DNA from: a virus
Lineage: Duplodnaviria > Caudoviricetes
Direction: 5' to 3' (one strand)
Virus record (IMG/VR): IMGVR_UViG_2876118799_000002
Location: 4,755-68,754 of that record
DNA: 64,000 bases
The position numbers and the translations under genes are program-made. Positions 1 through 37,990 of the stretch are shown piece after piece. The first letter of the stretch is position 1; every line of letters starts with the position of its first letter. The notes under the pieces are model-generated. The model did not search any database and was not told the DNA's origin. It saw nothing but the letters and a program-made list of their open reading frames with translations.

Positions 1-79
1 TTTGTACATATTTTTTCTAGTGTAATAATTTGGTAAGATTTTGTAAGTATACTAATCCCATAAGAAAGGGGGAAACCGT

Positions 80-1114
80 ATGAATATTACATTCTGGGTA
101 ACCGAAAGATGCAATTTAGCTTGTAAATACTGCTATGTACATAAGCAGCCTAAAACAATGACATTGGAAACCGCAGAACAGACAATCAAATATTTTACTA
201 ATAAATTTGATGAAACTGTTGCAGCAGGAAAACGGATTAATGTAGCTTTACATGGTGGTGAGCCATTACTGAATTTTGATGTTATTCGGTATATTGTAGA
301 AACCTTAAAAGAGCGATATGATGGTCATATCATTTTTACAATGACAACAAATGGAACAGTGTTTGAAAAGGATATTTACGATTTTATAAAGGGTAAGGTA
401 CAGATTTCTGTAAGCATTGATGGAAATAGGAAAACAAATGATACAAACCGTATTTATCCAAATGGTGAATCTTCCTTTGATAAAGTAGTGAAAACCTTAA
501 AGTTTTTAAAAGAGCAAGGTGAATACATCCGGGTCAGAATGACTGTCAATAAGGAAACCCTTCCGGCTATGGCTGAAAATTATATTTATCTGGATCAGAT
601 GAATATGGGAGTAGTAACTTTTGCATTAGATGCCGGAGCTGCATGGAACCAACAAGATATGCAGATATATTATGAAAACTACGAAAAAATCATGGATTAC
701 ATGATAGAAAAAGATAAAAAAGCAGCGCAGTATTTATTATTTAATATTAAAGAGGCAACCTTCAGAAGACGTACTGGCTGTGACGGTGGAACAAATACAT
801 TCCATATATCTGCGGATGGTGGAATTTACCCATGCGCATTAGCTGCTGATAAAGTGGATTATTGGCTAGGAGATGTTTGGAAAGGATTACAGCCGGAAAA
901 ATTAGAGGCTCTCCATAAGATTAACGAAATTCCAGTGACAGGGTGCGGAGATTGTACATTTAAGCAGAATTGTTCCAGCCAGGTATGTAAACTGATTAAT
1001 AAAGCATATACCGGAGATTACTACACTGTTTCTGCTTTCCAGTGCAATGAAAGAGATATTGTTTATCGGATTTATAAAAAGTATAAATATATATTGGAGG
1101 GATTCCATGTATAG
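80..1114 (+). CDS. Radical SAM/SPASM peptide maturase 1 (no N-terminal extension)
   Basis: CNLACKYC (CxxxCxxC), GGEP motif, SPASM-type Cys pattern (GCDGG...IYPC...CGDC...C...C...C); RBS aaggggg upstream. Confidence 0.9.
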   Translation: MNITFWVTERCNLACKYCYVHKQPKTMTLETAEQTIKYFTNKFDETVAAGKRINVALHGGEPLLNFDVIRYIVETLKERYDGHIIFTMTTNGTVFEKDIYDFIKGKVQISVSIDGNRKTNDTNRIYPNGESSFDKVVKTLKFLKEQGEYIRVRMTVNKETLPAMAENYIYLDQMNMGVVTFALDAGAAWNQQDMQIYYENYEKIMDYMIEKDKKAAQYLLFNIKEATFRRRTGCDGGTNTFHISADGGIYPCALAADKVDYWLGDVWKGLQPEKLEALHKINEIPVTGCGDCTFKQNCSSQVCKLINKAYTGDYYTVSAFQCNERDIVYRIYKKYKYILEGFHV

Positions 1115-2150
1115 TCCTAAAGTGGCAGTTGTAGACTCCGGTGTAGATACACAAAATCAGGAAATCATGGAGCATGTAATTCAAGGATTTTCTTTTCAAA
1201 AGAGTGCAGAAGAAGATGGAGTTATTGAAGAGAAAAATTTTGATGATGTTTTTGGTCATGGAACCAACTGCATTGATTGTATCTTACAATTTGCAGAGCA
1301 GGCACAATTTTATCCTATAAAAATTGTAAATGAATTAGGAAAAACGACCAGTTCTTTACTGCTTGCTGCGCTGGAAAAGTGCAGGGAACTACCGGTAGAT
1401 CTTATCTGTTTAAGCCTTTCCGTAACACAAATGCTTAATTCTGCTATGGAAAAGGAATTGAGGGATATTTGTAATGACCTGGAAAAACAGGGAAAGATTA
1501 TCTGTGCTTCGGAATGTAATAATGCAAAGGATACCATACCGGCAATTTATAAAAGTGTGATTGGTGTTGGAGAATTATTACCAGATGCAAAGAAAAAAGT
1601 TCTTGTAGACAGGGCGGCAAGCGTTCAGGTTCTGGCGGATATTTCCCCGATATTTGTTGCAGGAAAATCCGGACGATATAATTTTTTTAAGGGAACTTCA
1701 AAGGGAAATGCTTATGTGGCAGGTATTCTGGCCAGAGCTATGCAAACAGCACCGAATATAAAAAGCATACAGGAGGCATTAAACATACTGGAAAAGACAG
1801 ATGATCCTTTAGAAGAAATTGATTTAGAGTATGTAGGAAAGCTCCAGACTGATGAAGTGGGACAGATGATTTTGGAAAAAGTACATAGGAGATTGTTAGA
1901 GTTTGGCTGCACATCTTCCCTTGATGAAATCAGCAGGTATCCATTTCTTTCCCAAATTACAGGAGTGAATTTCTTTAATTTTTACGATTTTATCAGCGGG
2001 ATATATAGGGAATTAAAAATCACGAAGTTGGAGTATCATACCATAAAAGTAGGTGATGTTTGTACCTTGTATAATCTGGTTGAACATTTAAGAAGGAATG
2101 TGTGTTATGAAGAAAAAGAATGTTGTTTTGGAGCAGATACGAAAGTATAA
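1107..2150 (+). CDS. S8 subtilisin-like peptidase, no signal peptide, with about 85-aa C-terminal extension (possibly acyl-carrier-like)
   Basis: Catalytic motifs VVDSG, GHGT, GTS; ATG at 1107 with ggagg RBS at 1096-1100, overlapping the rSAM stop. Confidence 0.85.
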   Translation: MYSPKVAVVDSGVDTQNQEIMEHVIQGFSFQKSAEEDGVIEEKNFDDVFGHGTNCIDCILQFAEQAQFYPIKIVNELGKTTSSLLLAALEKCRELPVDLICLSLSVTQMLNSAMEKELRDICNDLEKQGKIICASECNNAKDTIPAIYKSVIGVGELLPDAKKKVLVDRAASVQVLADISPIFVAGKSGRYNFFKGTSKGNAYVAGILARAMQTAPNIKSIQEALNILEKTDDPLEEIDLEYVGKLQTDEVGQMILEKVHRRLLEFGCTSSLDEISRYPFLSQITGVNFFNFYDFISGIYRELKITKLEYHTIKVGDVCTLYNLVEHLRRNVCYEEKECCFGADTKV

Positions 2151-3048
2151 ATGGGGTTATCTGTTTGGGATTATATTGGTAGCTATGGACGCTATAGTGA
2201 CCTATATTTATCCTCAGTTAATTACCAATATTCTGGATAAGGCGGTTCCGGCAAAAAATCCAGGAGCTGTGATTTCCAATGTTGCATATATGGCTATATG
2301 CCAGCTTGTATCTATTACAGTAGCATTGGCATTGAGCTATCTGTTTTGCAAAATGTCAAATGGTTTTATTGTTAAAATCAAGTTATTGTTGATACAAGCA
2401 ATGTTTCAGGTTGATGGGAAGGAAATAGAGAAGAAATCAAATCTGTTTATGACCAGCATGAATGCAGATGTTAATAATATAGAGATGCTCTCTTCCCGTA
2501 TGCTTTCTGATTTGCTGATACAAATTGTGACTGTGATTATTACAGCGGTAATCCTGATACAGATTAATCCGGTTATCTTTTGGTTTATGCTTTTGATTTA
2601 TCCGATTCTTATTGCTATTCAGATTTTCTTCAACAAAAAAATCATGAGCCAGTCCAGAAAAGTAATGGGAAAAATGGATGTTGGAAATGGTCTGATTAAG
2701 GAGTTTGTAAGCAACCTTTATGAGTATCTGGCGTTAAATGGAAGAAATTACTATATAGACAAATTTTGCAGGAACGAAACTTCTTTGCGAAATGAAATCC
2801 TAAAGCAAAATATGTTAATGGCCTATAACCGTTCAGTACCGCAGCTCATTAGTACCACTACTTTTTTGATTGTACTGGCAATCAGTGGTGTTATGGTGAT
2901 TAATGGACAGGTACAGTTTGGAGAGCTGACAGTGATTATTATGTACACACAAAGAATGTTTAATCCGCTGTCCTCAATCATGCTTGTAATTGGACAGTTC
3001 CAAAAGGCAAAAGTATCAATGGACCGAATTAATGAGATTGTGGGGTGA
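2107..3048 (+). CDS. ABC exporter transmembrane domain (stand-alone)
   Basis: About six hydrophobic segments, ABC_membrane-like end (FNPLSSI...KVSMDRINEI). Confidence 0.85.
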   Translation: MKKKNVVLEQIRKYKWGYLFGIILVAMDAIVTYIYPQLITNILDKAVPAKNPGAVISNVAYMAICQLVSITVALALSYLFCKMSNGFIVKIKLLLIQAMFQVDGKEIEKKSNLFMTSMNADVNNIEMLSSRMLSDLLIQIVTVIITAVILIQINPVIFWFMLLIYPILIAIQIFFNKKIMSQSRKVMGKMDVGNGLIKEFVSNLYEYLALNGRNYYIDKFCRNETSLRNEILKQNMLMAYNRSVPQLISTTTFLIVLAISGVMVINGQVQFGELTVIIMYTQRMFNPLSSIMLVIGQFQKAKVSMDRINEIVG

Positions 3049-3680
3049 AGCAAATGGATATATCAAAAATTGAAATAAAAGATGTAAATTTCAGTTATAA
3101 AGATGTAAAAGTATATAGAAAAAATTTGAATATGTATCTTGAGAAGGGCTCTATTTATCTGATTAAAGGGAAAAATGGTTCAGGAAAAAGTACACTGGCT
3201 GGTATCTTGTTAAAAATCTGGAATGACTTTTCAGGAACTATATTATTAGATGGGAAAAGCATTACTAATCTTTCCAGGGAAATACTTACAGAAACAATAG
3301 GAATTTGTTTTCAAAAGCCGCCGATTTTTCGTGACACTATAAGAAATAATATTGCTCTTAATGATTCTATTCCGGTAGAAAAATATATTTCTTTATTATC
3401 ATTTTATAAAGATTTGGAAGAAATGGGGCGTACATTAGAGTCGGAGCTTATTGATACTGGAAGCGTTTCAGGTGGGCAGGCACAGAAAATTGGTATTATC
3501 CGGACAGTATGTAGAGAACGTTCTGTATATATTTTTGATGAACCTACATCAAACCTGGATAGTGTTTCTAAAAAAGAATTTTATGATATTATAGAACACT
3601 TGAAACAGAATAGCATTGTTATTTTATTTTCGCATGAAGCGGATGCAGAAAAAAATGCAGACTTTATCATTGAGTTGTAA
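3045..3680 (+). CDS. ABC exporter ATP-binding subunit
   Basis: GKNGSGKST, SGGQ, IFDEPTS, H-loop SH; GTGA overlap with the TMD gene; ATG 3054 is an alternative start. Confidence 0.9.
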   Translation: MKQMDISKIEIKDVNFSYKDVKVYRKNLNMYLEKGSIYLIKGKNGSGKSTLAGILLKIWNDFSGTILLDGKSITNLSREILTETIGICFQKPPIFRDTIRNNIALNDSIPVEKYISLLSFYKDLEEMGRTLESELIDTGSVSGGQAQKIGIIRTVCRERSVYIFDEPTSNLDSVSKKEFYDIIEHLKQNSIVILFSHEADAEKNADFIIEL

Positions 3681-3695
3681 AGGAGGGAACCAGAT

Positions 3696-4901
3696 ATGTA
3701 TATGAGAAGTCCAAATGCAAAAGTTTTAGTACGTGAAGAAAGAGTTGTTTTGTGTAACACCAGAAACGGAGGATTTGTAAAAACCTCAGAGGCTTATTTT
3801 CAGTATCTTGAAAAATATCTGGAAGAGAACAATGGGGATTTTACCATTGAGGAAGAAGATACTGTGGTAAAGAAAAATGCCTATAAGTTATTTCAGAAAC
3901 TGTGCCGGATTCATTTTTATATTTCGCAAGAACAGATGAAAAATGAGATAACCTATCCGTATCAGATCGTATATCTTTCTTTGACCAATAGGTGTAATCT
4001 AAGATGTAAACATTGTGTGGCGTCTGCTTGTATAGAAGAAGTAGATCACATGAATACGGAAGACTGGAAAAAGGTGATTGTTCAGGTGTTGGTTTTAAAT
4101 CCAGAACAGATTAACCTGACAGGTGGGGAACCGTTAATCCGTCCTGATTTCTGCGAGATACTGGAATATTTAAGGGCAAATTATAAAGGTGCAATTACCT
4201 TGTCTACAAATGCGTTACTGCTGAATGACCGGCTTATGGAAATCATTAAAAAGAATGTTGATGGTGTTTCCGTCAGTCTTGATGGTTTTGATTCCTATAG
4301 CTGCACAAAAGTGCGAGGAGAAGGGATTTATGACCGGGTGATTGCTGGGATCAAAAAATTAAAAGAAGCTGGAATGGAAAAAGTATCTGTTTCCATGCTG
4401 GAAACAAAATATACCTATGGACATGATCAGGATTTTTATAAATTATGTGAAGAGTTAGATGTAAAACCATTGATCCGAAGATTTGCTCCTTCAGGAAGAG
4501 GAGAAGAGAACCAAAGAGAATTGCTTCCACCAATGGAATACATAGAAAAATTGGAAAAGCAGCATTTAAGATGTGCATTATGTCAGCCTGGTAAAAAGGA
4601 GTTAAATATCAGTGAAAACGGAGATGTATATCCTTGTGCTCCACTTAGCAATTTGGAAAATCTTTTTATGGGAAATCTGCTGGAAACACCAATTACAGAA
4701 ATTATTGAGAACCCGGCATGGAAAGAGGAATTGGAAAAGTTAAGACCTTGGAGAATGGAAAAATGTAAGGATTGTGATGTGAATCTGTTCTGTCATTCTT
4801 GTATCAATTTTACTCTGGGAATGCAGAGCGACGAGGAAATCTTCCAGAAGTTTTGTGAAAAACAAAAAGGACATTTAGAAAAATTATTATGGGGGAATTA
4901 G
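3696..4901 (+). CDS. Radical SAM/SPASM peptide maturase 2 with N-terminal extension (RRE-like)
   Basis: CNLRCKHC, TGGEP, SPASM Cys pattern (CQPG...VYPC...CKDC...FCHSC...C); about 90 aa precede the rSAM motif. Confidence 0.9.
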   Translation: MYMRSPNAKVLVREERVVLCNTRNGGFVKTSEAYFQYLEKYLEENNGDFTIEEEDTVVKKNAYKLFQKLCRIHFYISQEQMKNEITYPYQIVYLSLTNRCNLRCKHCVASACIEEVDHMNTEDWKKVIVQVLVLNPEQINLTGGEPLIRPDFCEILEYLRANYKGAITLSTNALLLNDRLMEIIKKNVDGVSVSLDGFDSYSCTKVRGEGIYDRVIAGIKKLKEAGMEKVSVSMLETKYTYGHDQDFYKLCEELDVKPLIRRFAPSGRGEENQRELLPPMEYIEKLEKQHLRCALCQPGKKELNISENGDVYPCAPLSNLENLFMGNLLETPITEIIENPAWKEELEKLRPWRMEKCKDCDVNLFCHSCINFTLGMQSDEEIFQKFCEKQKGHLEKLLWGN

Positions 4902-4903
4902 TT

Positions 4904-5605
4904 ATGAAGAATAGAAAAAGACTTTTAAAAACAGTAGGTTTATTAACAGCGGCTACAGTGATGACAGTATCTTTAAATGCAGAGAGTGTTCTTGCTTATT
5001 CAACAGGGGAAGAGGCTGCTATTGTGGCTTCTGAGGAAGATCCATACGATGTTACGAAAATCAATTTGAAGGATATGTTTAATCAGAACCAGGAGGATTA
5101 CTACGTTTATTTTTATATGGTTCAGTGCCCGTTTTGCAATCAGGTAAAAGATAAAATGCTGAATTTTGCGGCAGAAAATGATAATGTATATTTTGTAGAT
5201 TATGCTTTAAGAGAAAATCGTCCTTTACAAAAATATAACTGGACAGCAACACGCTCCAAATATAACAAAAAGATAGGATATGTGGACAGTGATGGAAACA
5301 AGGTATTTTTACCGGGCGAATCGGAAGAAAAATACCAAAATATGAAGAATGATTACGGAAAGCGAATGCGTTTTAATTTTGTGACCATTACCCCAGACGA
5401 TATTCCTGCTTTTCCTGGGTCACAGGTAGGAGATATTTATACAGATATTCAGACACCGGAAATTGACTATGCTTCTATTACAAATTATGAAGATATGCTG
5501 ATTGCAGGTGTTCCAGCATTATATCGAATTACGAATGGAAAAATTACAGAATTTTATTTTGACTCTGTAGAAATAGAGGAGTTTTTCAATAGCATAGGAA
5601 GGTGA
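4904..5605 (+). CDS. Secreted thioredoxin-like protein (CPFC)
   Basis: Basic N-terminus plus hydrophobic stretch ending VLA (signal peptide-like); YFYMVQCPFC; GVPAL cis-Pro-like motif. Confidence 0.7.
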   Translation: MKNRKRLLKTVGLLTAATVMTVSLNAESVLAYSTGEEAAIVASEEDPYDVTKINLKDMFNQNQEDYYVYFYMVQCPFCNQVKDKMLNFAAENDNVYFVDYALRENRPLQKYNWTATRSKYNKKIGYVDSDGNKVFLPGESEEKYQNMKNDYGKRMRFNFVTITPDDIPAFPGSQVGDIYTDIQTPEIDYASITNYEDMLIAGVPALYRITNGKITEFYFDSVEIEEFFNSIGR

Positions 5606-5690
5606 GATTATGGATATAAAGGAAATCTTAAACCCTATATGGTTATGGATTTATAAAAACTAAAAATTCTAGGATGGAGGAAGTAATAGC

Positions 5691-6359
5691 ATGACTATAC
5701 TTGAAACAAAGGAATTGAAAAAATATTATGATTCCGGTGAATATATTACAAAAGCTTTAGATGGGGTTTCTTTAGAGATAGAAGAAGGTGAATTTGTTGC
5801 TATTGTTGGCGCTTCAGGGAGTGGAAAATCTACATTATTAAATATGATTGGTGGATTAGACATACCAACTTCTGGGAGTGTTTTAGTAAAAGGCAAAAAA
5901 ATAGGACAATTAAATGAAGAAGAACTAACGGTTTTTCGCAGAAGGAACATTGGCTTTGTTTTTCAAAATTATAATTTAATTCCAACATTAAATGTTTATG
6001 AAAATATTGTCTTTCCAGTGGAATTAGACGGAAATGATATAGATAAAGATTTTTTGAACAAAATTGTTACAATTTTGGGCATTGATAAAAAATTGGAGAA
6101 TCTTCCTGGAAATCTATCAGGTGGGCAACAACAGAGGGTTGCAATTGCCAGAGCTTTGATTACAAAACCGGCTATCATCTTGGCTGACGAACCGACAGGA
6201 AATCTTGACACACAATCAAGTCTTGAAGTAATGGGCTTATTGAAACAAACAAGTCAGCGATTTTGTCAGACTATTGTTATGATTACGCATAATATGAATT
6301 TGGCTCAAATGGCGGATAGAATTATTAGAATTCAGGACGGGAAAATTATAGACGCATAA
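5691..6359 (+). CDS. ABC ATP-binding protein, LolD/MacB type
   Basis: [36 protein letters not shown]. Confidence 0.95.
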   Translation: MTILETKELKKYYDSGEYITKALDGVSLEIEEGEFVAIVGASGSGKSTLLNMIGGLDIPTSGSVLVKGKKIGQLNEEELTVFRRRNIGFVFQNYNLIPTLNVYENIVFPVELDGNDIDKDFLNKIVTILGIDKKLENLPGNLSGGQQQRVAIARALITKPAIILADEPTGNLDTQSSLEVMGLLKQTSQRFCQTIVMITHNMNLAQMADRIIRIQDGKIIDA

Positions 6360-8950
6360 TGGGAGGGAATGCGGTGTATTTGACTAGAATTAAAAAGTGT
6401 ATCTTTAATCTTGCAAAAAAGAATTTTGGAAAAAGTAAAACACGAAATATAATTACTATTTTGGCAATTATACTAACCACTATGCTATTTACTTCTATGT
6501 TAACAATCTGTACGGGAACATATCAATCAATACAGACTACTATGCAGATGCAAAAGGGAAGTAAAGCAGACGGAGATATAAGATATTTAACAAAAAATGA
6601 GTTTGAGCAGTTGCAGGAAAATAGCAACATAAAAGTTAGTGGTTGTCGAAGACCGATAGGATTTGCAAGTAATACAAAGAATCATAATGTTGAAATTGAT
6701 TATATGGATCAAATAGAGCAAGAATTAACTTTTAATAGGCCAACGCATGGGAAAGCACCGAAAAAGGCTAATGAAATTGCTACTACAGATAAAGCATTAG
6801 AAAGTTTAGGAGTAACACCCAAAGTAGGAGAAAAGGTCAGGATAGAATTTGATTTAAGAGAAGAGCATTATGTTTATGAAATGACAGTTTCCGGATGGTG
6901 GGAAGCTAGAAATTCACAAGTTAGTGTATTGCTAGTGTCAGAGGAGTTTATGAATAAAAATGAATCTTTGTTTCCCTATACATACGATGAGGACATGGAA
7001 TATGCTGGAACGTATTTCTCAGAGGTGATTTTTGAATCTAAAAAGAACGTGGAGCAACAAATAAATAAGATCATTGAAGGTTTTAACGAGCAAAAAGGAA
7101 AAGATGTTGTATCTGGTGCAGTGAATTCAATTACAAATCCACAATTGGATTTTTCTGTGATTGGCGCAGTGATTATCTTTATAGTTTTATTTATTTTGGC
7201 AGGCTACTTGCTTATTAATAATATTTATTCTATTTCAGCTATGCAGGATATAAAAAATTATGGACTACTTAAAACTATTGGTACGACACAATCTCAGATT
7301 GCATTACTTGTTAAAATCCAGACATTGTGGTTACTTGTGCTAGGAATACCAGTTGGTTTAGTTACAGGGTATTTTATCGGTAAATCTATTTTACCGTTTA
7401 CAGTGAATACTATTGCAAGTGAATATTTAAAAACAGAAATAGTAATAGCACCAAATCCGTTGATTTTTGTTGTGGCAACGATATTTACAATTGTAACGGT
7501 TAAAATAAGTATTGGTAAACCATTACGTACTATATCTAAAATTTCCCCATTGGTAGCTATAAAGGAAACGGGAATAAGAAAAAATAAGAAAAAGAAAAAA
7601 ACGCATAAATTTAGCATAATTAAAATGGCAAATGATAATTTTAGAAGAAACAAAAAAAGAAGTATTTTTATTGTTATATCTATTGCATTATGTTGTGTGT
7701 TTTTTAATTCAGTTTTTATTCTGGCAAATAGTATTAGTATAGAAAAAGGGGTTGGATTACAAAGTGCTGCGGATATTGAAATCGGAAGTGGTAATCTATT
7801 TAATAATTTAAAAGGTTATACACGACATAGTGATGGTTTAGAACCCCAAGTAATAGATAGCATTAAGGCAAACTTTAAAATTAATGCGGAAGGGATTATA
7901 TATAAAAATACATTAGATGATTTAAACGTTACATTTGATTATAATGCACCAATACAAGATGAAATTATATCTGAAAATGGAGTGAAGATGGTAGCTACAG
8001 AAAATGGGCGTGTAATACTGGGAAATAATAATTTTCCAATTTGTAATGTCTATGGAATAGATGAAAATGTTTACCAGAGAATGAATTTAGTAGACTCTAT
8101 TGCAGGTATAGAGCAGAATAGTATTTTTCATAAAATGGAGCAAGAGAATTTCTTGATAGAAGCATTGCCAGTTTCACGTACTTCAAAAGATACGAGAGAA
8201 TTTCAATGCAATTTAGGTGATAAAATAAAGGCTTTTGTTGATGGTGAGGAAAAACTTTATACGGTTATTGCACATGCGTATGTTAGCCCGACAGAATATG
8301 AGGCTCCTAATATGACGACAGGTATAAATATTGTTGGAGGAGATGCACCGATGTTCTACCTTTCCTCAAAATCATTTGTAGATTTATATCAAAATCCAAC
8401 AATCATGAATTATACATTCAATGTCGATGAAAAAAATATGAAACAAATTTCATCGGAGATTGAAGTATTCGTTGAAAATTTTGAAGGAAAAGTTGGATTT
8501 AATTCTGCTGAGTTGATAAAACAGGATATGGAAAGTATGAAAAATACAATTTATGCAGTGGGAATTGTTGTTAGTTGTATTATTGGAATTTCAGGTCTTA
8601 TCAATTTTTTGAATTTAACAATTGCAAATATTTTGAGTCGGAGAAGAGAATTTGCCATAATGGAAAGTGTGGGAATGAGCAAAAAACAGATTAAAGTTTT
8701 GATAACAGGAGAAAGTCTGCTATATTCTGTTTATGCAGCTCTTTTAGGCTTAGTGTGTTCGTTAGTATCGGGATTTTTATTGATTGGTCCGATTTGTAAA
8801 GATACATGGTTTATGCATTTTGATATGGTAATATGGCCAGCTATTCTTATAGGTGGAAATATTGTTATACTAACAATATTTTTACCTAAATTATTATATA
8901 AGGTATTTAGCAAAGGCAGTATTGTAGAAAAACTTAGAATTGAGGGATAG
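6359..8950 (+). CDS. FtsX/MacB-type ABC permease
   Basis: Two FtsX-like halves (YGLLKTIG; RRREFAIMESVGM) with large extracytoplasmic loops; GTG 6374 is an alternative start. Confidence 0.85.
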   Translation: MGGNAVYLTRIKKCIFNLAKKNFGKSKTRNIITILAIILTTMLFTSMLTICTGTYQSIQTTMQMQKGSKADGDIRYLTKNEFEQLQENSNIKVSGCRRPIGFASNTKNHNVEIDYMDQIEQELTFNRPTHGKAPKKANEIATTDKALESLGVTPKVGEKVRIEFDLREEHYVYEMTVSGWWEARNSQVSVLLVSEEFMNKNESLFPYTYDEDMEYAGTYFSEVIFESKKNVEQQINKIIEGFNEQKGKDVVSGAVNSITNPQLDFSVIGAVIIFIVLFILAGYLLINNIYSISAMQDIKNYGLLKTIGTTQSQIALLVKIQTLWLLVLGIPVGLVTGYFIGKSILPFTVNTIASEYLKTEIVIAPNPLIFVVATIFTIVTVKISIGKPLRTISKISPLVAIKETGIRKNKKKKKTHKFSIIKMANDNFRRNKKRSIFIVISIALCCVFFNSVFILANSISIEKGVGLQSAADIEIGSGNLFNNLKGYTRHSDGLEPQVIDSIKANFKINAEGIIYKNTLDDLNVTFDYNAPIQDEIISENGVKMVATENGRVILGNNNFPICNVYGIDENVYQRMNLVDSIAGIEQNSIFHKMEQENFLIEALPVSRTSKDTREFQCNLGDKIKAFVDGEEKLYTVIAHAYVSPTEYEAPNMTTGINIVGGDAPMFYLSSKSFVDLYQNPTIMNYTFNVDEKNMKQISSEIEVFVENFEGKVGFNSAELIKQDMESMKNTIYAVGIVVSCIIGISGLINFLNLTIANILSRRREFAIMESVGMSKKQIKVLITGESLLYSVYAALLGLVCSLVSGFLLIGPICKDTWFMHFDMVIWPAILIGGNIVILTIFLPKLLYKVFSKGSIVEKLRIEG

Positions 8951-9001
8951 GATATTTAAGTTTATTAAATATAAAATTACTTGGAAAGGAGGCGAAAGAG
9001 T

Positions 9002-9139
9002 ATGAGGATTTTAGAGCAAGTAATACAGGAAGAAACATTCGACATCGAAGTGCAGTATTGCGATCCAGACGAGTGCCTACATGATTGTATACACTCAGGA
9101 ACTAATAACTGCGATGCAATTATTACCGGTTGGAGGTAG
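9002..9139 (+). CDS. RiPP precursor A1, 45 aa: MRILEQVIQEETFDIEVQYCDPDECLHDCIHSGTNNCDAIITGWR
   Basis: Translated by hand; RBS aaaggagg upstream; acidic leader-like N-terminus and 4-Cys core; below the ORF-track length cut-off. Confidence 0.9.
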   Translation: MRILEQVIQEETFDIEVQYCDPDECLHDCIHSGTNNCDAIITGWR

Positions 9140-9151
9140 AAGGAGGCCATT

Positions 9152-9289
9152 ATGAAGGAAATGGAAAAAGTAGTACAGGAAGAAACATTTGAAATCGAAG
9201 TACAGTATTGTGATCCTAATGATTGTCTGCATGATTGCATACACTCAGGGGTCAATAACTGTGATGCAATTATTACCGGTTGGAGATAA
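9152..9289 (+). CDS. RiPP precursor A2, 45 aa: MKEMEKVVQEETFEIEVQYCDPNDCLHDCIHSGVNNCDAIITGWR
   Basis: Translated by hand; RBS aaggagg; paralog of A1. Confidence 0.9.
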   Translation: MKEMEKVVQEETFEIEVQYCDPNDCLHDCIHSGVNNCDAIITGWR

Positions 9290-9301
9290 AGGAGAGTCAT
9301 T

Positions 9302-9439
9302 ATGAAGGAATTAGAAAAAATGGTACAGGAAGAAACATTTGAAATTGAAGTACAGTATTGTGATCCTGATGATTGTCTGCATGATTGCATACACTCAGGG
9401 GTCAATAACTGTGATGCGATTATTACCGGTTGGAGATAG
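9302..9439 (+). CDS. RiPP precursor A3, 45 aa: MKELEKMVQEETFEIEVQYCDPDDCLHDCIHSGVNNCDAIITGWR
   Basis: Translated by hand; RBS aaaggag; paralog of A1/A2. Confidence 0.9.
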   Translation: MKELEKMVQEETFEIEVQYCDPDDCLHDCIHSGVNNCDAIITGWR

Positions 9440-9447
9440 GAGTTATT

Positions 9448-9585
9448 ATGGAGAAATTAAAAAGAACAGTACAGGAAGAAATATTTGAAATTGAAGTACA
9501 GTACTGTGATCCTGATGACTGTTTACACGATTGTATGGAGAGTGGATACAATAACTGTACAGCAGTAGTAACTAGCTGGTGGTAA
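9448..9585 (+). CDS. RiPP precursor A4 (divergent core), 45 aa: MEKLKRTVQEEIFEIEVQYCDPDDCLHDCMESGYNNCTAVVTSWW
   Basis: Translated by hand; RBS aggag; same Cys spacing as A1-A3. Confidence 0.88.
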   Translation: MEKLKRTVQEEIFEIEVQYCDPDDCLHDCMESGYNNCTAVVTSWW

Positions 9586-9615
9586 AACTTGCAAATACAG
9601 ACAAAGGCAGTTTAG

Positions 9616-9659
9616 AAAAAGGCACTAGGTAAGAATTTTCTGTTATCTAGTGCCTTTTT
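9616..9659 (+). terminator. Rho-independent terminator closing the precursor array
   Basis: aaaaaGGCACTAG...CTAGTGCCttttt inverted repeat. Confidence 0.8.
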
Positions 9660-9712
9660 AATACAAAGGGAGGTAAGCGCTTAATTTTTAGGTATGTTAG
9701 AAAAATCCCCGA

Positions 9713-11389
9713 CTACTTTTCAGTAGCCGGAGCACCTTGACAATTCACATATGATTGATTTGATTCGTTTGCACGACGTTCGATCTCAGCTTTGACAGTT
9801 TCATTCCATGGCGCCAGAAGTTCTAATTCATCATCACTCATCCTGTCATCAGGCAGTTTTTCCAGCAGATAAGTAAGATAGTGATAGACGTTTACTCCAT
9901 TGGCTTTTGCCATTTCTACCATTGTGTACACGATAGCGCTGGCCTGGGCTCCGTTTGGTGTGTCACAGAACAGCCAATTTTTACGGCCTACTGTAAACGG
10001 ACGAATCGCATTTTCACTGAGATTATTAGAAAAACTGCAGCGGCCGTCTTCCAGATAGGTGGACAGATAGGAGCGGCGGTTCTGAATGTAGGTGACAGCT
10101 TTATCCATTCTGCTTCCACGGATAGGGCTCTGCTGATCAAGCCACGACAAAAAGCCTTCTACTACCGGCTTTTCTTTTTCAAGACGAGCCTTTTTGATAG
10201 CATCGAAGGAAGAACACTTTGATCTGATCACATCTTCCAGGTGGAAGAGCTGGTTAATGTACAGCATTCCCTGTACGGATGGCTGGGTATAATCCAGAGC
10301 CTTTCCCTTGGGAATGGCATCTGTCAGATATCTTCTGATGTGTGCCCAGCAGGCTGTGCGTTTGGCATCTGGAACTTTATTGTATCCACTATAGCCATCA
10401 CACATCAGATAACCCTTGAAGCCGTGAAGAAAATCTACGGCATTATCCCCGGCCCGGGTCTCCGAGTATTTATAGAGGATAATAGATGGTCCTTCGTCTT
10501 CACCGCTGCGGAACAGCCACATATATGACTTGGTCTGTGCACGGCGTTCCGGTTCATGCAGAACCTGAAGTGGCGTTTCATCTGCCATCGCGAATCCCCG
10601 TTCCAGAAGTTTCCTGTGGAAGTATTCATACATAGGAAGAAAAAATGCTTCAGAATTTCGGATCACCCAGTTTGCCATAGTAGCTCTGGTGATCTCCACG
10701 CCATACTGTTTCCAGTCTTTTTCCTGACGGTAGTATGGAAGACCATTACAAAACTTCTGGTATATTACCCAGGCAACCGTTCCGGCAGAAGCCATTCCAT
10801 AAAGCATATGGGCTCTGCCATCTTTTCCTTTTTTGATGACCGGAATATCCTGAAGCCTGCACTGCGGGCACTCATAGCTCTTACTGTAGTATTCATATAC
10901 TTTCAGTTTTGCCGGTACAAAAACCAGTTCCCGGCGGACAAACTCTTCCCCGATTTCTTTCAGCGGGGTACCACAGACAGGGCAGAGTTTCTCTTCCCCA
11001 GAAAGCTTCAGATACTTTTTTTCAACAGGAACTCCCTTAAAACGCTCCGCATCTGTAGCTCTTGCTTTTCGCTTTTTTGCTGTTTTTTCCGGAAGAATTG
11101 TTTCAAGATCCTCTGCGTTTGCAGACTCCGGATCCTGTTCCAGTTCAGCCTCGTTGAAAAAGTTTAACTGTCCTGGAATATCGAGAGTTCTTTTTTCGCT
11201 GGAGATGCCAAACAGTTTTTTTCGGAGAAGGTCTATCTCTTCTTTCAGATTATCCCGTTCCTGGGTGAGAACCGCTTCCCGTTTATTGGCAGCATCGACA
11301 GTTGCCTGAAGTGTTTTTATCATCTTTTTGAGATCGTTTATCATGTCCTTCAGCTCACGGAGCTGGATATCTTTGGAACTGTCTGCCAC
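9713..11389 (-). CDS. tnpC: IS66 transposase
   Basis: Coiled-coil N-terminus, CPVC/CPQC zinc finger, ADET, CDGYSGY, NNLSENAIR, GRKNWLF motifs. Confidence 0.95.
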   Translation of the reverse strand: MADSSKDIQLRELKDMINDLKKMIKTLQATVDAANKREAVLTQERDNLKEEIDLLRKKLFGISSEKRTLDIPGQLNFFNEAELEQDPESANAEDLETILPEKTAKKRKARATDAERFKGVPVEKKYLKLSGEEKLCPVCGTPLKEIGEEFVRRELVFVPAKLKVYEYYSKSYECPQCRLQDIPVIKKGKDGRAHMLYGMASAGTVAWVIYQKFCNGLPYYRQEKDWKQYGVEITRATMANWVIRNSEAFFLPMYEYFHRKLLERGFAMADETPLQVLHEPERRAQTKSYMWLFRSGEDEGPSIILYKYSETRAGDNAVDFLHGFKGYLMCDGYSGYNKVPDAKRTACWAHIRRYLTDAIPKGKALDYTQPSVQGMLYINQLFHLEDVIRSKCSSFDAIKKARLEKEKPVVEGFLSWLDQQSPIRGSRMDKAVTYIQNRRSYLSTYLEDGRCSFSNNLSENAIRPFTVGRKNWLFCDTPNGAQASAIVYTMVEMAKANGVNVYHYLTYLLEKLPDDRMSDDELELLAPWNETVKAEIERRANESNQSYVNCQGAPATEK

Positions 11390-11522
11390 TGCTTTTTCCT
11401 CCTGTTTCTGATATTTCCATTATACCAGAAAACAGTGGCTTTTCCCAGCAAAACAGCGGATTTACCAGACCTTGAAAGTGCCGAAAATACAGCAAAAAGC
11501 AAGAGCTTTATGTGCATCTTTT

Positions 11523-11861
11523 TTACGTTGCCTTGATCGCTTTGGGCTGCTCAATATCAATGCCAGACATCAGCCAGTCGAACTCCCGCCATGTAAGATT
11601 CCGGACCTCAGATTTATTCCTGGGCCACCGGTAAGATCCCTGGGCGGTCAGTCTTTTGTAGATCATAACGATCCCGTCAGGTTCTTTTAAAATAGCTTTG
11701 ATACGGTCGCATTTACGACCGCAGAAAAGAAAAAGTGCATGGTCGATCTCCATCGAAAACTGTTCCTGGATGATCGCACATAATCCATCAATGGACTTGC
11801 GCATATCTGTTCTGCCACAGACGATATAGATCGCATCAACACTTGAGATGTCCGCTAACAT
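11523..11861 (-). CDS. tnpB: IS66 accessory protein TnpB
   Basis: GRTDMRKSIDGL, LFLFCGRK, YKRL, GSYRWP motifs. Confidence 0.95.
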   Translation of the reverse strand: MLADISSVDAIYIVCGRTDMRKSIDGLCAIIQEQFSMEIDHALFLFCGRKCDRIKAILKEPDGIVMIYKRLTAQGSYRWPRNKSEVRNLTWREFDWLMSGIDIEQPKAIKAT

Positions 11862-12271
11862 AACGACTCCTTAAGTGTATCCATAAGCATCTTCAGAAGT
11901 AACGGTTTGATCTCATTACTCATTCGTATAAGCAATCCGTCTGCTTCGATTTCAATCGTATGTGAATTGTCAAGGTGCATAGGTCTGTTTCCATTATCTG
12001 GGATCAGCCCTGCCGGAGAAGACTCCGGTTCTATAGCAATCTGGACTACATCCTGTTTATGGGATGTAAGGTCAAGAGTGCTGGCTTTGGGTGCTGGATC
12101 CGGTATCTGGCAGGCTTTTTTGCGGAGACGGGTAACTGCATTGTAAAAACAGCTGGGAGATATCCCATGCTCATTACACCATGCAGCATCTGTCAGGCCA
12201 CTTTGTCTGCATTCGGTTACCAGTTCCATCCATTCGTCCAGGGAACGCCCTGGAGCACGTTTCTTACTCAT
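11855..12271 (-). CDS. tnpA: IS66 accessory protein TnpA (HTH)
   Basis: EWMELVTECRQSGLTDAAWCNEHGIS HTH pattern; first gene of the element. Confidence 0.85.
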   Translation of the reverse strand: MSKKRAPGRSLDEWMELVTECRQSGLTDAAWCNEHGISPSCFYNAVTRLRKKACQIPDPAPKASTLDLTSHKQDVVQIAIEPESSPAGLIPDNGNRPMHLDNSHTIEIEADGLLIRMSNEIKPLLLKMLMDTLKESLC

Positions 12272-12410
12272 AATGAAACCTCCAAATGTAGTAAATTTCT
12301 ATCTCCTATCAAGCGGAGTGTAGTAAAAATCTATTTACTATCATTATGAGTTTAAAAACGTAGACAGTAAAGCTACCCAAGATCTAAGCGCTTACAAAGG
12401 GAGAGAAACT

Positions 12411-13067
12411 ATGTATCCATTTCTAGTTGAAAATATGGCAGATGAGGAAGCCCATATACAAAATTTAAACATTGAGGTAAATTCCAAAGAAGTTTGCTAT
12501 TTTATGTGTGGGGAAAATTTTGGACGGATACTTTTTGAAATCTTTTGCGGATATAAAAAACCAAAAACAGGAGAGATATTTGTATGTAATAAAGACTGGC
12601 TTGATTTGGACGAAAATAGTCGTTCTCTTTTAAACAGGCGCTTGTTTGGAATAGCGGCAGAAGAGTTTCCGCTGATTGAATTTATGACGGTTGAAGAAAA
12701 CATTTCTATGCCAAGTCTGTTAGATGGAGATAAATCCAATATAGAGGAATTGGTTAAGGCTTTTGACATAGGCCACTTATTACAAAAATATCCTTCGGAT
12801 CTTAATCATAGAGAAAAAATGAGATGTATCTGTGCGCGTGCCTTTTCTGGAGGCAGAAAGGTTGTTGTGATATTCGATTTATTCAAAAGAATGCAAGAGC
12901 AGAGTAAGGCAGATCTTGCAATACTTACTTATCATGCAGCAAAAAGTTTGGGGATAGCTGCTCTTTACATAAGTGAAGATTTAGACGAAAATTATGGCGC
13001 CTATGATCTTATATACAAATACCGACCTGAGAAAAAGGAATTTTCTATTATTGATTATCGCGCATGA
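12411..13067 (+). CDS. Degenerate ABC ATPase-like protein
   Basis: ABC-like layout (G.KKP.TGEI, FPLIEFMTVEENI, KYPSDL) but Walker A reads GENFGR and the signature reads LNHREKMR. Confidence 0.55.
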   Translation: MYPFLVENMADEEAHIQNLNIEVNSKEVCYFMCGENFGRILFEIFCGYKKPKTGEIFVCNKDWLDLDENSRSLLNRRLFGIAAEEFPLIEFMTVEENISMPSLLDGDKSNIEELVKAFDIGHLLQKYPSDLNHREKMRCICARAFSGGRKVVVIFDLFKRMQEQSKADLAILTYHAAKSLGIAALYISEDLDENYGAYDLIYKYRPEKKEFSIIDYRA

Positions 13068-13450
13068 ATGGAACTGTAGAAATGGAATGTGATAGAGAAT
13101 GTAGACTGCTGTTAAATGATTTGAATGGTATTCTTTCTGAACAATGTTTGGAACAAAGAGTTAGGTGCAGGTATTTGAATAATCCGGTGCAGGAGTTGGC
13201 AGAGTGTATCAATCAACTACTGGATATTTGTGAGAGGGCAGTAACAAGGACACTGGATATAGAAAATGATTATCGTACTATGCGGGCGGAACTGCAGAGC
13301 AATATCCGAAATCCGCTAAGCTGCATAAAAACAAGTTGTTTTCTGATCAATTCACTTGCAGAAAAGGAAAATATCCAGTCTGAAAAGCTCCGAGAGTATC
13401 TTCAAATTATGGAAAAGGCAGCGGAGGATATAGAGAGTGCATTAAAATAA
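13064..13450 (+). CDS. Small HisKA-like protein lacking the phospho-His and the ATPase domain
   Basis: LQSNIRNPLS resembles the H-box xSHDxRTPL with H replaced; preceded by a HAMP-like ELAECINQL. Confidence 0.5.
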   Translation: MNGTVEMECDRECRLLLNDLNGILSEQCLEQRVRCRYLNNPVQELAECINQLLDICERAVTRTLDIENDYRTMRAELQSNIRNPLSCIKTSCFLINSLAEKENIQSEKLREYLQIMEKAAEDIESALK

Positions 13451-13546
13451 CTGATAATTGAAGAAGTGCTGGGCGGGGAGTTTTCGTCCAGTATTTCTTT
13501 CTGGAATGAGAAAAGTTGAATTTACAAATCAAGAGGAGGCATACAC

Positions 13547-13876
13547 ATGAAGTATGTTTTTCCAGAATATAAAGAGAATGTAGTGTTGGGCAACGGGAAA
13601 TTACAGTTAAATCCAATGTCCTATCAGGTTATCTACGAAGGAAAGGAGATAGACCTGACACCCAGGGAATTTGAAGTTTTATATCTACTGGCTTTAAAGC
13701 CAAACTGGGTAATGCCAAAGACAAATATTTATCATTCTGTATGGGGTATTCATTATCATGATGATCAGATACCATACAGAACAGTAGAATATGTGATATG
13801 GAAGATAAGAAAAAAGATGGGACATGATATTATCGAAACGTTGGTCAATGTGGGGTATCGGTTGAAAAAGTTATAG
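13547..13876 (+). CDS. Stand-alone OmpR-type winged-helix DNA-binding protein (copy 1)
   Basis: LTPREFEVLYLLA, SVW, IWKIRKKM, IETLVNVGYRL; no receiver domain; gaggagg RBS. Confidence 0.85.
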   Translation: MKYVFPEYKENVVLGNGKLQLNPMSYQVIYEGKEIDLTPREFEVLYLLALKPNWVMPKTNIYHSVWGIHYHDDQIPYRTVEYVIWKIRKKMGHDIIETLVNVGYRLKKL

Positions 13877-13935
13877 TTTTTGGGAGATATAATTGAGATG
13901 AAATAGTATGTTATTATTAATGGAGGATTTATTAC

Positions 13936-14433
13936 ATGAACAGAAATAAGAAAAGTGCAAAACAGTATCACCAATCTGTAATTACTGCTTTAGAGAAAAA
14001 AGTAAATGACATGAAAGATTCCGCTTATTCAGGATTGTATAGTGAAATAGCATTTATCATTGGAATAGCAGTTATCATGATAGATACCTTTTTTCCACCA
14101 GAGGAAACGAAAGTTAATTGTGTATGGAAAATAATACTGATAGCTGTATCTATAGTCTGTATGCTTTATTTCGCCAAAAAAGTGAAAACAGTGAATGAAG
14201 TGGAAGAAGAGAAAAAGTTTTGGCCGAACTTTTTTATTCAATGGGCAACAAGTTTAGGATATATAAACATGCCTGTAGCTGTGATAGCTATTTTGGTAAC
14301 CTTTGATAAGGGCAAAGCATGGACATTATTTATGATGGGGGTTGCTGTAATTCTGACAGGTTTAACTTTAATAGAAGCACTTGTAAAAACTTCTAAAATT
14401 TTAAAAAAAGAAAATGTTGGTAAGCGGAAATAA
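13936..14433 (+). CDS. Hypothetical membrane protein (about 4 TM)
   Basis: ggagg RBS; four hydrophobic segments. Confidence 0.7.
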   Translation: MNRNKKSAKQYHQSVITALEKKVNDMKDSAYSGLYSEIAFIIGIAVIMIDTFFPPEETKVNCVWKIILIAVSIVCMLYFAKKVKTVNEVEEEKKFWPNFFIQWATSLGYINMPVAVIAILVTFDKGKAWTLFMMGVAVILTGLTLIEALVKTSKILKKENVGKRK

Positions 14434-36333: not shown

Positions 36334-36373
36334 CGGTTCATAATAAAAAATCCAAATGAAAGGAGTGTTTAGA

Positions 36374-37927
36374 GTGAAAGAGCAGAAAAAAATATCTTTA
36401 GAATCGCTGGTATCTGAAATCGAAAAAAATGGAAGAATTGGGCGCTTGGGTAAAGTTTTTAAGACAGAAAAAAATTATTATTTTTATGATACAGGAACTG
36501 GAAAAGTTGCCAAATTAAATTCGAACGTTTACATTGTACTGAAAAGTTTATTGGAGGGAATGCCAGTCGAAGATATTAAAAATCTTCAATTAAGTAAAAG
36601 TGAGTTTGAGGATGCAATTTCAGAAATTAAGTCGGCAATGGAAAATGAACATATTTTACAAGCTCCACCATTAAAAACGCTGACAGGTGATGCAGTAACA
36701 GAGTTAGATGATATTCTTGAAAATAAGGTTGAGAATGTTACTCTTGAAGTTACTGAAAAATGTAATTTACGTTGCAAATATTGTATTTATCATCCTTCTC
36801 ATCCAGAATACAGGGCGTTCGGACATGAAAACATGAAATGGGATGTTGCAAAAAAAGCTATTGATTTTTTAAAAGAGCATTCCCAAAATGCAGAAAATAG
36901 GCACATTGGATTTTATGGTGGAGAACCTTTACTAAATTTTGAACTTATTGAAAGAGCAGTTGAATATGCTAAAAAATTATTTGGCGAGGATATGTCCTTT
37001 GCAATCACTACAAATGCAACATTGGTAAATGATAAGATCGCAGAGTATTTTGCCAAAAATAATTTCAATATTATTATTAGCTTGGATGGTCCTCAGGAAA
37101 TGCACGATGCAAATCGGCTTATGGTTAATGGGACAGGTAGCTTTGAAAAAACAGTTATGGGAGCAAAAAAACTATTTGAAGCATTCCATAAGGAAGGAAA
37201 GAGTTCTAAGATTGGATTTAATATGGTTGTATCGGGACCAGGTTATCTTGAACAGTATACAAAAATTCAGGAGTTTATCGAAAAAAGTGAATGGATTCCC
37301 AAAGACGTTATGATTTTGACTGCAACGGTAGATCATGGACCGTCAGAGAGTGATTACTTTTTACCGCAAGGAAAAGAAGATAGATGGTTTATGGAAGAGT
37401 TTTATGAACCTTTAATGAAATGGGAAGAAGTGTATAAATCAAATCCAGATAATACAGAAAAAACTTTGTTTACGGATGGTTATATGGATAAGGGAATGAT
37501 GATTATACACAAACGCTTGTTGACAGAAACACCTATTCAACAGTATGGAATGAATGGATGCTGCGTGCCGGGACAAAGAAGGATTTATGTCACTACAAAA
37601 GGTGAATTTTTACATTGTGAAAAAGTAGGAAATATACCTTGTTTAGGCAATGTGAATGAGGGATTTGATAAAGAAAAAATTAAGAAACTTTATGTTGAAG
37701 ACTTTATAGAAGAAGCAAAAGAGTATTGTAAAGAATGTTGGGCAGTTAATTTATGTACATTATGTTATGTTAATTGCTACGATGCTAATGGATTACATCT
37801 TTCATATCGACATAATTCATGTCGAAACGAAAGAAAGTATTTGGAAGACAATTTAAGACGATATCATGCATTAATGGAGGCAAATCCAAGCGAATTGGAA
37901 CAATATAATGAAATGGAAATTCATTAA
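36374..37927 (+). CDS. Radical SAM/SPASM Cys-rich peptide maturase (CcpM-like)
   Basis: N-terminal YFYDTGTG RRE-like region, CNLRCKYC, GGEP, GCCVPG...HCEKV...CKECW...CTLCYVNC; GTG 36374 with aaggag RBS (track start 36356). Confidence 0.9.
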   Translation: MKEQKKISLESLVSEIEKNGRIGRLGKVFKTEKNYYFYDTGTGKVAKLNSNVYIVLKSLLEGMPVEDIKNLQLSKSEFEDAISEIKSAMENEHILQAPPLKTLTGDAVTELDDILENKVENVTLEVTEKCNLRCKYCIYHPSHPEYRAFGHENMKWDVAKKAIDFLKEHSQNAENRHIGFYGGEPLLNFELIERAVEYAKKLFGEDMSFAITTNATLVNDKIAEYFAKNNFNIIISLDGPQEMHDANRLMVNGTGSFEKTVMGAKKLFEAFHKEGKSSKIGFNMVVSGPGYLEQYTKIQEFIEKSEWIPKDVMILTATVDHGPSESDYFLPQGKEDRWFMEEFYEPLMKWEEVYKSNPDNTEKTLFTDGYMDKGMMIIHKRLLTETPIQQYGMNGCCVPGQRRIYVTTKGEFLHCEKVGNIPCLGNVNEGFDKEKIKKLYVEDFIEEAKEYCKECWAVNLCTLCYVNCYDANGLHLSYRHNSCRNERKYLEDNLRRYHALMEANPSELEQYNEMEIH

Positions 37928-37990
37928 CAAAGGTAAATACGTTTATATTTACATAGATGTATTTAAATTACAAAGAAAGGAGGAATCGTT

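Follow-up and report, generated by a model that had tools for sequence, protein, structure and literature searches.

The radical S-adenosylmethionine (rSAM) enzyme PapB, which acts on PapA to give freyrasin in Paenibacillus polymyxa, joins Cys to Asp or Glu residues at spacings of 0-6 residues (PMC9413430). It requires the acceptor carboxylate to lie C-terminal to the Cys, takes a hydrogen from the carbon next to that carboxylate and joins to it a Cys located 1-7 residues N-terminal (PMC9413430, PMC12373016), and its recognition element for ribosomally synthesized peptides that carry post-translational modifications (RiPPs; the RiPP recognition element, RRE) spans residues 1-86 (PMC12715619). 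QhpD links Cys to Asp or Glu in QhpC, the cytoplasmic subtilisin QhpE then cuts off the leader, and the ATP-binding cassette (ABC) protein QhpF carries out export (PMC7876137). A subtilisin-like protease is also part of the CLI_3235/CcpM systems, such as SacP23 of P. polymyxa, together with a Cys-rich peptide, an rSAM enzyme and an acyl-carrier-related accessory protein (PMC10731318), while ruminococcin C of Mediterraneibacter gnavus comprises thioether bacteriocins with paralogous four-Cys precursors (RumC1-5) and two rSAM enzymes (RumMc1/2) (PMC6760926). Here we compare with these systems a gene cluster near the 5' end of a 64,000-nucleotide stretch of DNA (hereafter the window; positions 4,755 to 68,754 of the IMG/VR virus record IMGVR_UViG_2876118799_000002, Duplodnaviria, Caudoviricetes), in which genes for two rSAM enzymes, an S8 (subtilisin-like) protease, a split ABC exporter, a thioredoxin-like protein and an ABC/FtsX transporter are followed by four small open reading frames (ORFs) rich in Cys. 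Our analysis makes it probable that the cluster makes ribosomal, thioether-cross-linked and disulfide-bearing peptides with four Cys residues, encoded in variable precursor-transporter cassettes, and that these would most likely be narrow-spectrum bacteriocins of gut Lachnospiraceae.

An earlier reading of the window from its letters (the sequence-only reading) had described a same-strand cluster of a first rSAM enzyme (rSAM1), an S8 protease, the transmembrane (TMD) and ATPase (NBD) subunits of an exporter, a second rSAM enzyme (rSAM2), a thioredoxin-like protein and a MacB-type ABC pair, ending in four tandem small ORFs, each with a ribosome-binding site, and a terminator. All of these are found where it placed them. 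The small ORFs A1 (9002-9139), A2 (9152-9289), A3 (9302-9439) and A4 (9448-9585, with a divergent tail) each encode 45 residues on the plus strand, have a GGAG-type ribosome-binding site and align as paralogues; the hairpin and U-run that follow (9616-9660, +) form an intrinsic terminator closing the operon, with a 17-bp stem and then UUUUU (-24.1 kcal/mol, z = -5.62). The four precursors of the earlier count are all present but fall short of the true number, as the cluster runs upstream of the window and the contig carries at least ten. Alignment of ten contig precursors (four in the window and six upstream) gives 11 invariant columns. Among nine paralogues, synonymous sites are near saturation (synonymous divergence, pS, 0.69-0.92), and the ratio of nonsynonymous to synonymous divergence (pN/pS) rises from 0.13 in the Cys block through 0.35 in the leader to 0.57 in the C-terminal tail. 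By this sequence measure, the four 45-residue ORFs are real genes under purifying selection, which is strongest on the Cys block.

When the ten peptides are used as a profile, a set of 5.8 billion proteins yields 289 clusters at 90% identity, and one of 1.8 billion yields 88 representatives at 50%. The earlier remark that this core was not recognised as a described RiPP is supported: the precursors match no Pfam or NCBIfam model (NCBIfam E <= 0.01), database names, where given, are only 'hypothetical protein', and no paper on the peptide family was found in the literature outside subscription-only papers, whether by the motif strings or by Blautia and Lachnospiraceae with rSAM RiPPs. The expectation that gene callers would miss the precursors, on the other hand, is wrong, since they are called in RefSeq and in many assemblies (for example WP_021653101.1). 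Named sources are Blautia, Lachnospiraceae, [Ruminococcus] torques and 'Bacillota'. Single family members occur on 325 to at least 1000 contigs, and one is indexed in 646 blocks of the sequence collection.

Motif statistics were drawn from 197 short proteins fetched, 136 of which fit the full pattern. The precursors are 44-45 residues long with a conserved leader, F-D/E-V/I-E-V/I-Q, and what stays constant in the family is Q-x(1-3)-C-x4-C-x2-D-C, followed by a fourth Cys and an eight-residue tail. C-x4-C-x2-D-C is present in 135 of the 136 members; the Cys3-Cys4 loop is hypervariable and 6-8 residues long, and the tail after Cys4 is exactly eight residues in 136/136, usually ending in Trp, Phe or Leu. 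The sequence-only reading had placed Cys1 in a CxxxD/E register, yet residue +4 of Cys1 is Asp or Glu in only 115/135 members; the invariant acid lies elsewhere, as the Asp of C-x-x-D-C between Cys2 and Cys3 (135/135). The spacings of a PapB-type substrate are thus found at two places, C-x2-D in every one of the 135 members and C-x3-D/E at Cys1 in 115.

The precursor family occurs with one gene set, in at least six gene orders, from Lachnospiraceae to Paenibacillus polymyxa. The shared genes encode rSAM1 (~345 residues), the S8 protease, the split ABC exporter, rSAM2, the thioredoxin-like protein and ABC-ATPase/duplicated-FtsX pairs, and block I (rSAM1-S8-TMD-NBD) and block II (rSAM2 and the thioredoxin-like gene) are contiguous throughout the relatives. 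A complete Blautia genome (L002) has the same genes, preceded by a two-component system and a Zn_dep_PLPC gene, as do Blautia sp. Marseille-P3201T (L006), with enzymes 95-99% identical, and a metagenome-assembled Lachnospiraceae genome (L007), with identities of 64-85%. Further loci (L010, L011-13, L020 and a locus split by an insertion) have precursors among the most distant profile matches. Their orders are thioredoxin-like, rSAM2, two precursors, rSAM1, S8, TMD, NBD in L010; rSAM1, S8, TMD, NBD, rSAM2, thioredoxin-like, two precursors, ABC, FtsX in L011-13; and rSAM1, S8, TMD, NBD, precursor, FtsX, rSAM2, thioredoxin-like, ATPase in L020, and in one relative genome the gene set is interrupted by an insertion sequence. 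The P. polymyxa cluster has an rSAM1 44% identical to that of the window, a 410-residue rSAM enzyme, an S8 protease, a split ABC exporter, a PedC-like thioredoxin (Pfam) in the same place as the thioredoxin-like gene of the window, an ABC/FtsX pair, an agr-type regulator pair and three peptides with the same Cys/Asp pattern. SacP23 of the same species was considered as the same system and rejected, as it belongs to CLI_3235/CcpM. More distant clusters, in Metaclostridioides mangenotii and in another metagenome, keep a short rSAM enzyme (~340 residues), a longer one, the S8 protease and the ABC exporter; their peptides share the leader (D/E)-V/M-E-V-x-Q and x-x-D-C units.

Because each biosynthetic locus examined has the peptides together with the same enzyme set, even where genes are rearranged and enzyme identity falls to 33-45%, the small ORFs are, as had been proposed from sequence, very probably the substrates of these enzymes. 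Relatives lacking the peptides would have told against this; those examined carry them beside the same enzymes. The opposite view, that the small ORFs arose by chance, serve as attenuator leaders or are left over next to an rSAM operon unrelated to them, could appeal only to their small size and to the lack of a curated family, and it is already effectively refuted by pN/pS values of 0.13-0.57 with saturated synonymous sites, by the invariant Cys spacing across 289 database clusters and by the co-occurrence with the enzyme set through rearrangements from Clostridia to Bacilli. Three consecutive rSAM genes (~371-386, 357 and 425 residues) adjoin the cluster in two relatives (L009:1393-4865 and L016:4268-7778). 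L009 was considered as a three-rSAM variant of the family and rejected, as these genes form a separate neighbouring system with its own small peptides, which share a D-V-K-T-Q leader motif and have different cores.

As to the chemistry, rSAM1 (80-1114, +; 344 residues; Pfam Radical_SAM and motifs) has its CxxxCxxC motif at residues 11-18 and therefore no N-terminal recognition element; it ends in a seven-Cys SPASM tail. The analogy with PapB drawn earlier holds in that PapB is the best hidden Markov model (HMM) lead: the top NCBIfam match is NF047865 (E 3.7e-62, profile positions 5-328/330), at 210.5 bits against a cut-off of 340, followed in order by the CXXX-repeat maturase, the SCIFF maturase and CcpM. 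The closest structure in the PDB is CteB (5wgg), aligned from CteB residue 102. Orthologues of rSAM1 are 44-98% identical in all related clusters, and a scan of viral contigs gave no relative. rSAM2 (3696-4901, +; 401 residues; Pfam Radical_SAM and SPASM) has a full SPASM domain and ~90 additional N-terminal residues that are kept in orthologues. Its NCBIfam matches are MftC, WgkB and StsB, all far below cut-off (StsB 97.6 vs 625; AlbA 66 vs 850), and its closest solved structure is again CteB. An AlphaFold2 (AF2) model places three strands and then three helices at the N-terminus, with pLDDT 35-50 there and 60.7 over the whole model, the poor quality arising because the alignment has only six sequences. 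The strand-helix order matches that of RREs, so an RRE-like N-terminus is suggested by the model as a lead only; nothing in NCBIfam matches this region at E <= 10. Both enzymes are ordinary SPASM peptide maturases.

These matches bear on a competing account of the chemistry, in which the thioredoxin-like protein forms two disulfides and the rSAM enzymes instead make C-C or C-O links to conserved aromatics (the Tyr before Cys1, the His/Tyr before the invariant Asp, the C-terminal Trp/Phe) or carry out epimerisation. The best matches of rSAM2 include WgkB and MftC, which do not form thioethers, the aromatic positions are conserved, the fixed-length tail usually ends in Trp, Phe or Leu, and the clusters keep a secreted CxxC protein of their own. 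We nevertheless hold this account to be quite improbable, given that rSAM1 is closest to the thioether formers PapB, CXXX-repeat maturase, SCIFF maturase and CteB, that, Cys apart, the core position that varies least is an Asp lying C-terminal to a Cys, the placement needed by PapB and QhpD (PMC9413430, PMC7876137), and that StsB, which is MftC-like in sequence, is a proven sactisynthase (PMC10288494).

The S8 gene (1107-2150, +) encodes a cytoplasmic putative leader peptidase with a C-terminal helical domain, as indicated by its triad, NCBIfam matches and an AF2 model. An alternative ATG lies upstream at 1047; the homologues overlap the rSAM stop by 8-11 nt, which 1107 fits better and which makes it the probable start. 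Numbered from there, the triad D10, H51, S198 is invariant, and inspection of the sequence reveals neither a signal peptide nor a pro-domain. The top NCBIfam match is QhpE (NF049966; 102.4 bits vs a cut-off of 165). The AF2 model (pLDDT 89.5) combines a subtilisin fold with the helical domain (residues 250-338), which is kept in all orthologues and has an invariant G286 and N291 in T-G-x-x-F-F-N-F ahead of its second long helix. In the model, the helix order of this domain resembles that of an acyl carrier protein without the serine. Foldseek with the whole S8 model returned subtilisins only and did not place the fold of the domain, and a protein atlas gave sub-threshold leads only (for example PP-binding on 23% of one cluster, score 0.89), which we do not treat as evidence. 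The TMD gene (2098-3048, +; Pfam ABC_membrane, 96 bits; without a C39 peptidase domain) always directly follows the S8 gene in related loci, and the NBD gene (3045-3680, +; Pfam ABC_tran, 91 bits) comes next.

The remaining enzyme of block II is a thioredoxin-like protein of 238 residues (4889-5605, +) with a hydrophobic, signal-like N-terminus and a CPFC motif; the CxxC and a G-x-P (cis-Pro) loop are conserved in orthologues. NCBIfam matches to TrbB and PedC/BrcD are weak, the PedC/BrcD-type model reaching 15.8 bits vs a curated cut-off of 120 with CPFC and a G-V-P loop present, and BLASTP against the Paenibacillus PedC-like protein is not significant (E 0.12-0.29), though both motifs pair. 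The protein is most simply read, from these sequence features, as a secreted thiol-disulfide oxidoreductase, which implies that not all four Cys residues become thioethers.

Block I holds side by side the same three activities as QhpD/E/F, and we therefore propose a similar order of steps. The leader would be bound, probably, by the RRE-like N-terminal domain of rSAM2, by the helical C-terminal domain of the S8 protease, or by both. rSAM1, being PapB/CteB-like, would then form one or two thioethers between Cys and the carbon next to an Asp carboxylate, the likeliest pairs being Cys2 with the invariant Asp and, where that residue exists, Cys1 with Asp+4. A further cross-link in the C-terminal half would be added by rSAM2. 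The cytoplasmic S8 protease would free the peptide of its leader by cutting at the invariant Gln or directly behind it, in the way that QhpE processes QhpC, the split ABC exporter would secrete the peptide, and the secreted thioredoxin-like protein would close a disulfide between the remaining Cys residues.

The cassettes bear on what the product is for. In the window, a MacB/LolD-type ATPase (5691-6359, +), to which the LolD, MacB and DarD models of NCBIfam match at ~210-223 bits, all below their cut-offs, is followed by an 863-residue duplicated FtsX/MacB-type permease (6359-8950, +) with two FtsX domains and MacB_PCD (Pfam). Each ABC-ATPase/FtsX pair precedes its own two to four precursor genes, and in Blautia loci a unit of ATPase, FtsX and two to three precursors is repeated one to three times before rSAM1 and occurs once more behind the thioredoxin-like gene. 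Between the window and L006, identity is 95-99% for the enzymes, 90% for the last ATPase and only 48% for the last FtsX, and the precursors differ; in a further relative, L008, the FtsX is 92% identical and a single truncated precursor resembles A1. Across nine modules, higher FtsX identity goes with higher identity of the precursor cores (Spearman 0.73, Mantel p 0.008). Such an organisation is the usual bacteriocin-immunity pattern, to which dedicated efflux or signalling are alternatives. We suggest that the repeated pairs would protect the producer (or provide dedicated efflux), as cassettes whose diversification goes along with that of the peptides; the products would therefore most likely be narrow-spectrum bacteriocins.

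Two cassettes stand without enzymes. Each consists of one precursor, an ABC-ATPase and an 864-residue FtsX (L017:10001-14358 and L018:10001-14358, from assemblies GCA_001481575.1 and GCA_052921365.1) and adjoins transposase fragments, with no rSAM, S8 or thioredoxin-like gene within 10 kb. The window itself holds an 877-residue duplicated FtsX permease at 54455-57088 (+), 38% identical over its full length to the cluster permease, with no precursor nearby in a profile search; a response regulator paired with a histidine kinase follows downstream (61218-63148). This permease may serve for immunity or resistance, as an orphan transporter of the cluster-permease class.

The same cluster and substrates could also yield quorum-sensing-type signals, with the ABC/FtsX pairs acting as exporters or sensor-coupled transporters and not as immunity proteins. 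In several relatives the cluster has AgrB, LytTR-regulator and HATPase_c_5 kinase genes as neighbours, in Blautia a two-component system adjoins it, and the acidic nature of the predicted mature peptides would fit a signal. Yet signalling accounts poorly for up to ten hypervariable paralogues per locus, each set with its own divergent permease, or for transporter-plus-precursor cassettes that lack enzymes; the pattern is the one usual for bacteriocins with immunity genes, and the window is a bacteriocin island with a lanthipeptide cluster and another rSAM cluster. In addition, agr systems commonly regulate bacteriocin loci. We consider signalling improbable.

Several observations weigh against thioether-cross-linked bacteriocins made in the manner proposed. 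Every enzyme HMM score is below its curated cut-off, and rSAM1 is without the N-terminal RRE that PapB has (PMC12715619). The RRE-like view of the rSAM2 N-terminus comes from a low-confidence model (pLDDT 35-50), and the helical C-terminal domain of the S8 protease matches no NCBIfam model, TIGR04069 included (E <= 10). In ~15% of members residue +4 of Cys1 is Asn, Gln, His or Ser, and the pairing of residues, like the enzyme assigned to each link, is our inference. The correlation between FtsX and precursor may be due to nothing more than linkage. For bacteriocins, the acidic character of the predicted mature peptides would be unusual, and agr-type quorum-sensing genes near several clusters also fit a signalling role.

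The proposed steps do not account for the invariant eight-residue tail, and a cross-link with the C-terminal residue may be one possibility. PapB can in vitro link to the C-terminal residue or its carboxylate-adjacent carbon. A bolder picture of the product, which we regard as unlikely, is a new compact scaffold with two in-line Cys-Asp thioethers, a second rSAM cross-link that fixes the tail (possibly at the C-terminal residue or carboxylate-adjacent carbon) and a disulfide; its RRE-less rSAM enzyme would be fed by the helical, acyl-carrier-like domain fused to the S8 protease or by the RRE of the partner rSAM enzyme, and it would be diversified via swappable cassettes of precursors and immunity transporters.

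The source contig is 68.8 kb long, and the window begins at its base 4755; contig bases 1-4900 are referred to as L001. The upstream 4.7 kb add to the cluster six further paralogous precursors (L001:1-135, 152-277, 649-783, 4253-4387, 4403-4540 and 4558-4695) and a second pair of ABC-ATPase and 865-residue FtsX (L001:932-1594 and 1591-4188). Two precursors lie at the contig start, one after a relic ATPase and three after the second ATPase/FtsX pair, and the last precursors are followed by a terminator and then by the promoter region of rSAM1. As the contig start coincides exactly with a precursor ATG, further parts of the cluster may lie beyond it. The relic (L001:451-540) has in-frame stops and the same N-terminus as the intact ATPase at 932, sits behind a copy of a shared promoter motif and looks like the scar of a deleted transporter cassette. 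That motif, a direct repeat of the GTAATAATTTG / GTAAGATTTTG type with one exact site in the window (22-38, +, upstream of rSAM1), is by alignment common, with a -10-like TATnaT box, to the regions 5' of the relic ATPase, the upstream ABC pair and rSAM1, and is not shared by the region upstream of the internal ABC pair. The shared repeat and box suggest two or more co-regulated operons, each closing with precursor genes, and from the two-component system adjoining the cluster in L002 we infer that the repeat may be the site of an OmpR-type regulator.

At its 3' edge the cluster is bounded by an IS66-family element (9713-12271, -) with a 558-residue transposase, IS66 Orf2 and a third ORF, which accounts for the jump in G+C. 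Contigs from other samples part from the window right after 9672, and the element is therefore an insertion specific to this strain. A lanthipeptide locus lies at ~15-21 kb, and a 523-residue rSAM enzyme with a fused ABC exporter (36356-40031, +) marks another rSAM cluster; with both, the window is an island of several bacteriocin loci. Large serine recombinases lie further downstream, three in tandem (45607-50540, +) and a fourth at 59285-60982 (+), as does a RES-domain protein (52532-53806). Although the record is that of a virus, the window has the look of a mobile, integrative island rich in bacteriocin clusters.

Expression was approached through Logan contigs only, whose depth cannot rank genes and whose RNA-labelled libraries may contain DNA. 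In three RNA-labelled wastewater runs the word depth is 10-750 over 9106-9610 vs 2-32 over the enzyme genes, so that the precursor region is 10-25x deeper, compared with 1-1.8x in DNA; in the mouse-gut DNA run, the depth is 15-26 in the precursor region vs 15 in the enzyme genes. These values give a weak hint that precursor mRNA is abundant.

Gut metagenomes are rich in these peptides, which are found in Blautia and other Lachnospiraceae, groups associated with colonisation resistance. No product, structure or activity is on record for the family. If the products are narrow-spectrum antibacterials, they bear on strain competition in the gut. The locus is tractable in that a precursor co-expressed with each rSAM enzyme would reveal the natural role of a PapB-like enzyme without a recognition domain, and the fixed eight-residue tail and invariant Asp-Cys give sharp predictions. 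The repeated transporter-plus-precursor cassettes are, moreover, a natural experiment on the co-diversification of bacteriocin specificity and self-protection.

Set beside the known systems, the cluster resembles freyrasin in that the best family match of rSAM1 is PapB and the substrates have a Cys and then an Asp at short spacing, in line and repeated (C-x3-D, C-x2-D). It differs in that rSAM1 scores below the PapB cut-off, in having four Cys residues and one invariant Asp vs the six CX3D repeats of PapA, and in the additional second rSAM enzyme, secreted thioredoxin-like protein and ABC/FtsX cassettes. Like QhpD/E/F, it has adjacent genes for an rSAM enzyme, a cytoplasmic subtilisin-like protease and ABC export (PMC7876137), with QhpE the best match of the S8 protease and QhpD a weak match of rSAM1; both scores are below cut-off (QhpE 102.4 vs 165, QhpD 94.6 vs 453). 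By ORFs and families, none of the subunit genes of quinohemoprotein amine dehydrogenase (QHNDH; qhpA, qhpB, qhpC) nor qhpG is present in window 1-14433 or contig 1-4900, and whereas QhpC is an enzyme subunit in Proteobacteria, the substrate here is a multi-copy 45-residue peptide in Gram-positive bacteria.

With SCIFF/thermocellin (CteA/CteB) the cluster shares Cys-rich precursors of ~45 residues, an occurrence in Clostridia and CteB as the structure closest to both rSAM enzymes. In contrast, the SCIFF maturase model scores 139 vs 425, the precursors do not match the SCIFF model, CteB has an RRE and rSAM1 none, and SCIFF loci have one precursor and one enzyme with no protease or immunity cassettes. 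As for the CLI_3235/CcpM systems, their acyl-carrier-related protein could have a fused counterpart in the helical domain that ends the S8 protease, and rSAM1 matches CcpM weakly; the score is 129 vs 500, however, the precursors are unrelated and the S8 domain is without a TIGR04069 match. Ruminococcin C is likewise a gut Lachnospiraceae locus with several four-Cys paralogues and two rSAM maturases (PMC6760926). It differs in that the RumMC family scores 82 vs 720 and the precursors are unrelated in sequence. The leader of ruminococcin C is removed in a different way, and its locus is not known to have a Qhp-like S8/ABC block.

The proposal of a new RiPP class is thus too strong, as the enzymes are ordinary SPASM maturases and the likely thioether and disulfide chemistry would fall among ranthipeptide- and sactipeptide-type RiPPs. 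On the present sequence comparisons the peptides look like a new precursor family and a new branch of the known rSAM-modified Cys-rich RiPPs, and not a demonstrated new class. What is unusual is the combination, in which an RRE-less PapB-like rSAM enzyme and a second rSAM enzyme occur with a Qhp-like S8/ABC block, a helical domain fused to the S8 protease, a secreted oxidoreductase and modular cassettes.

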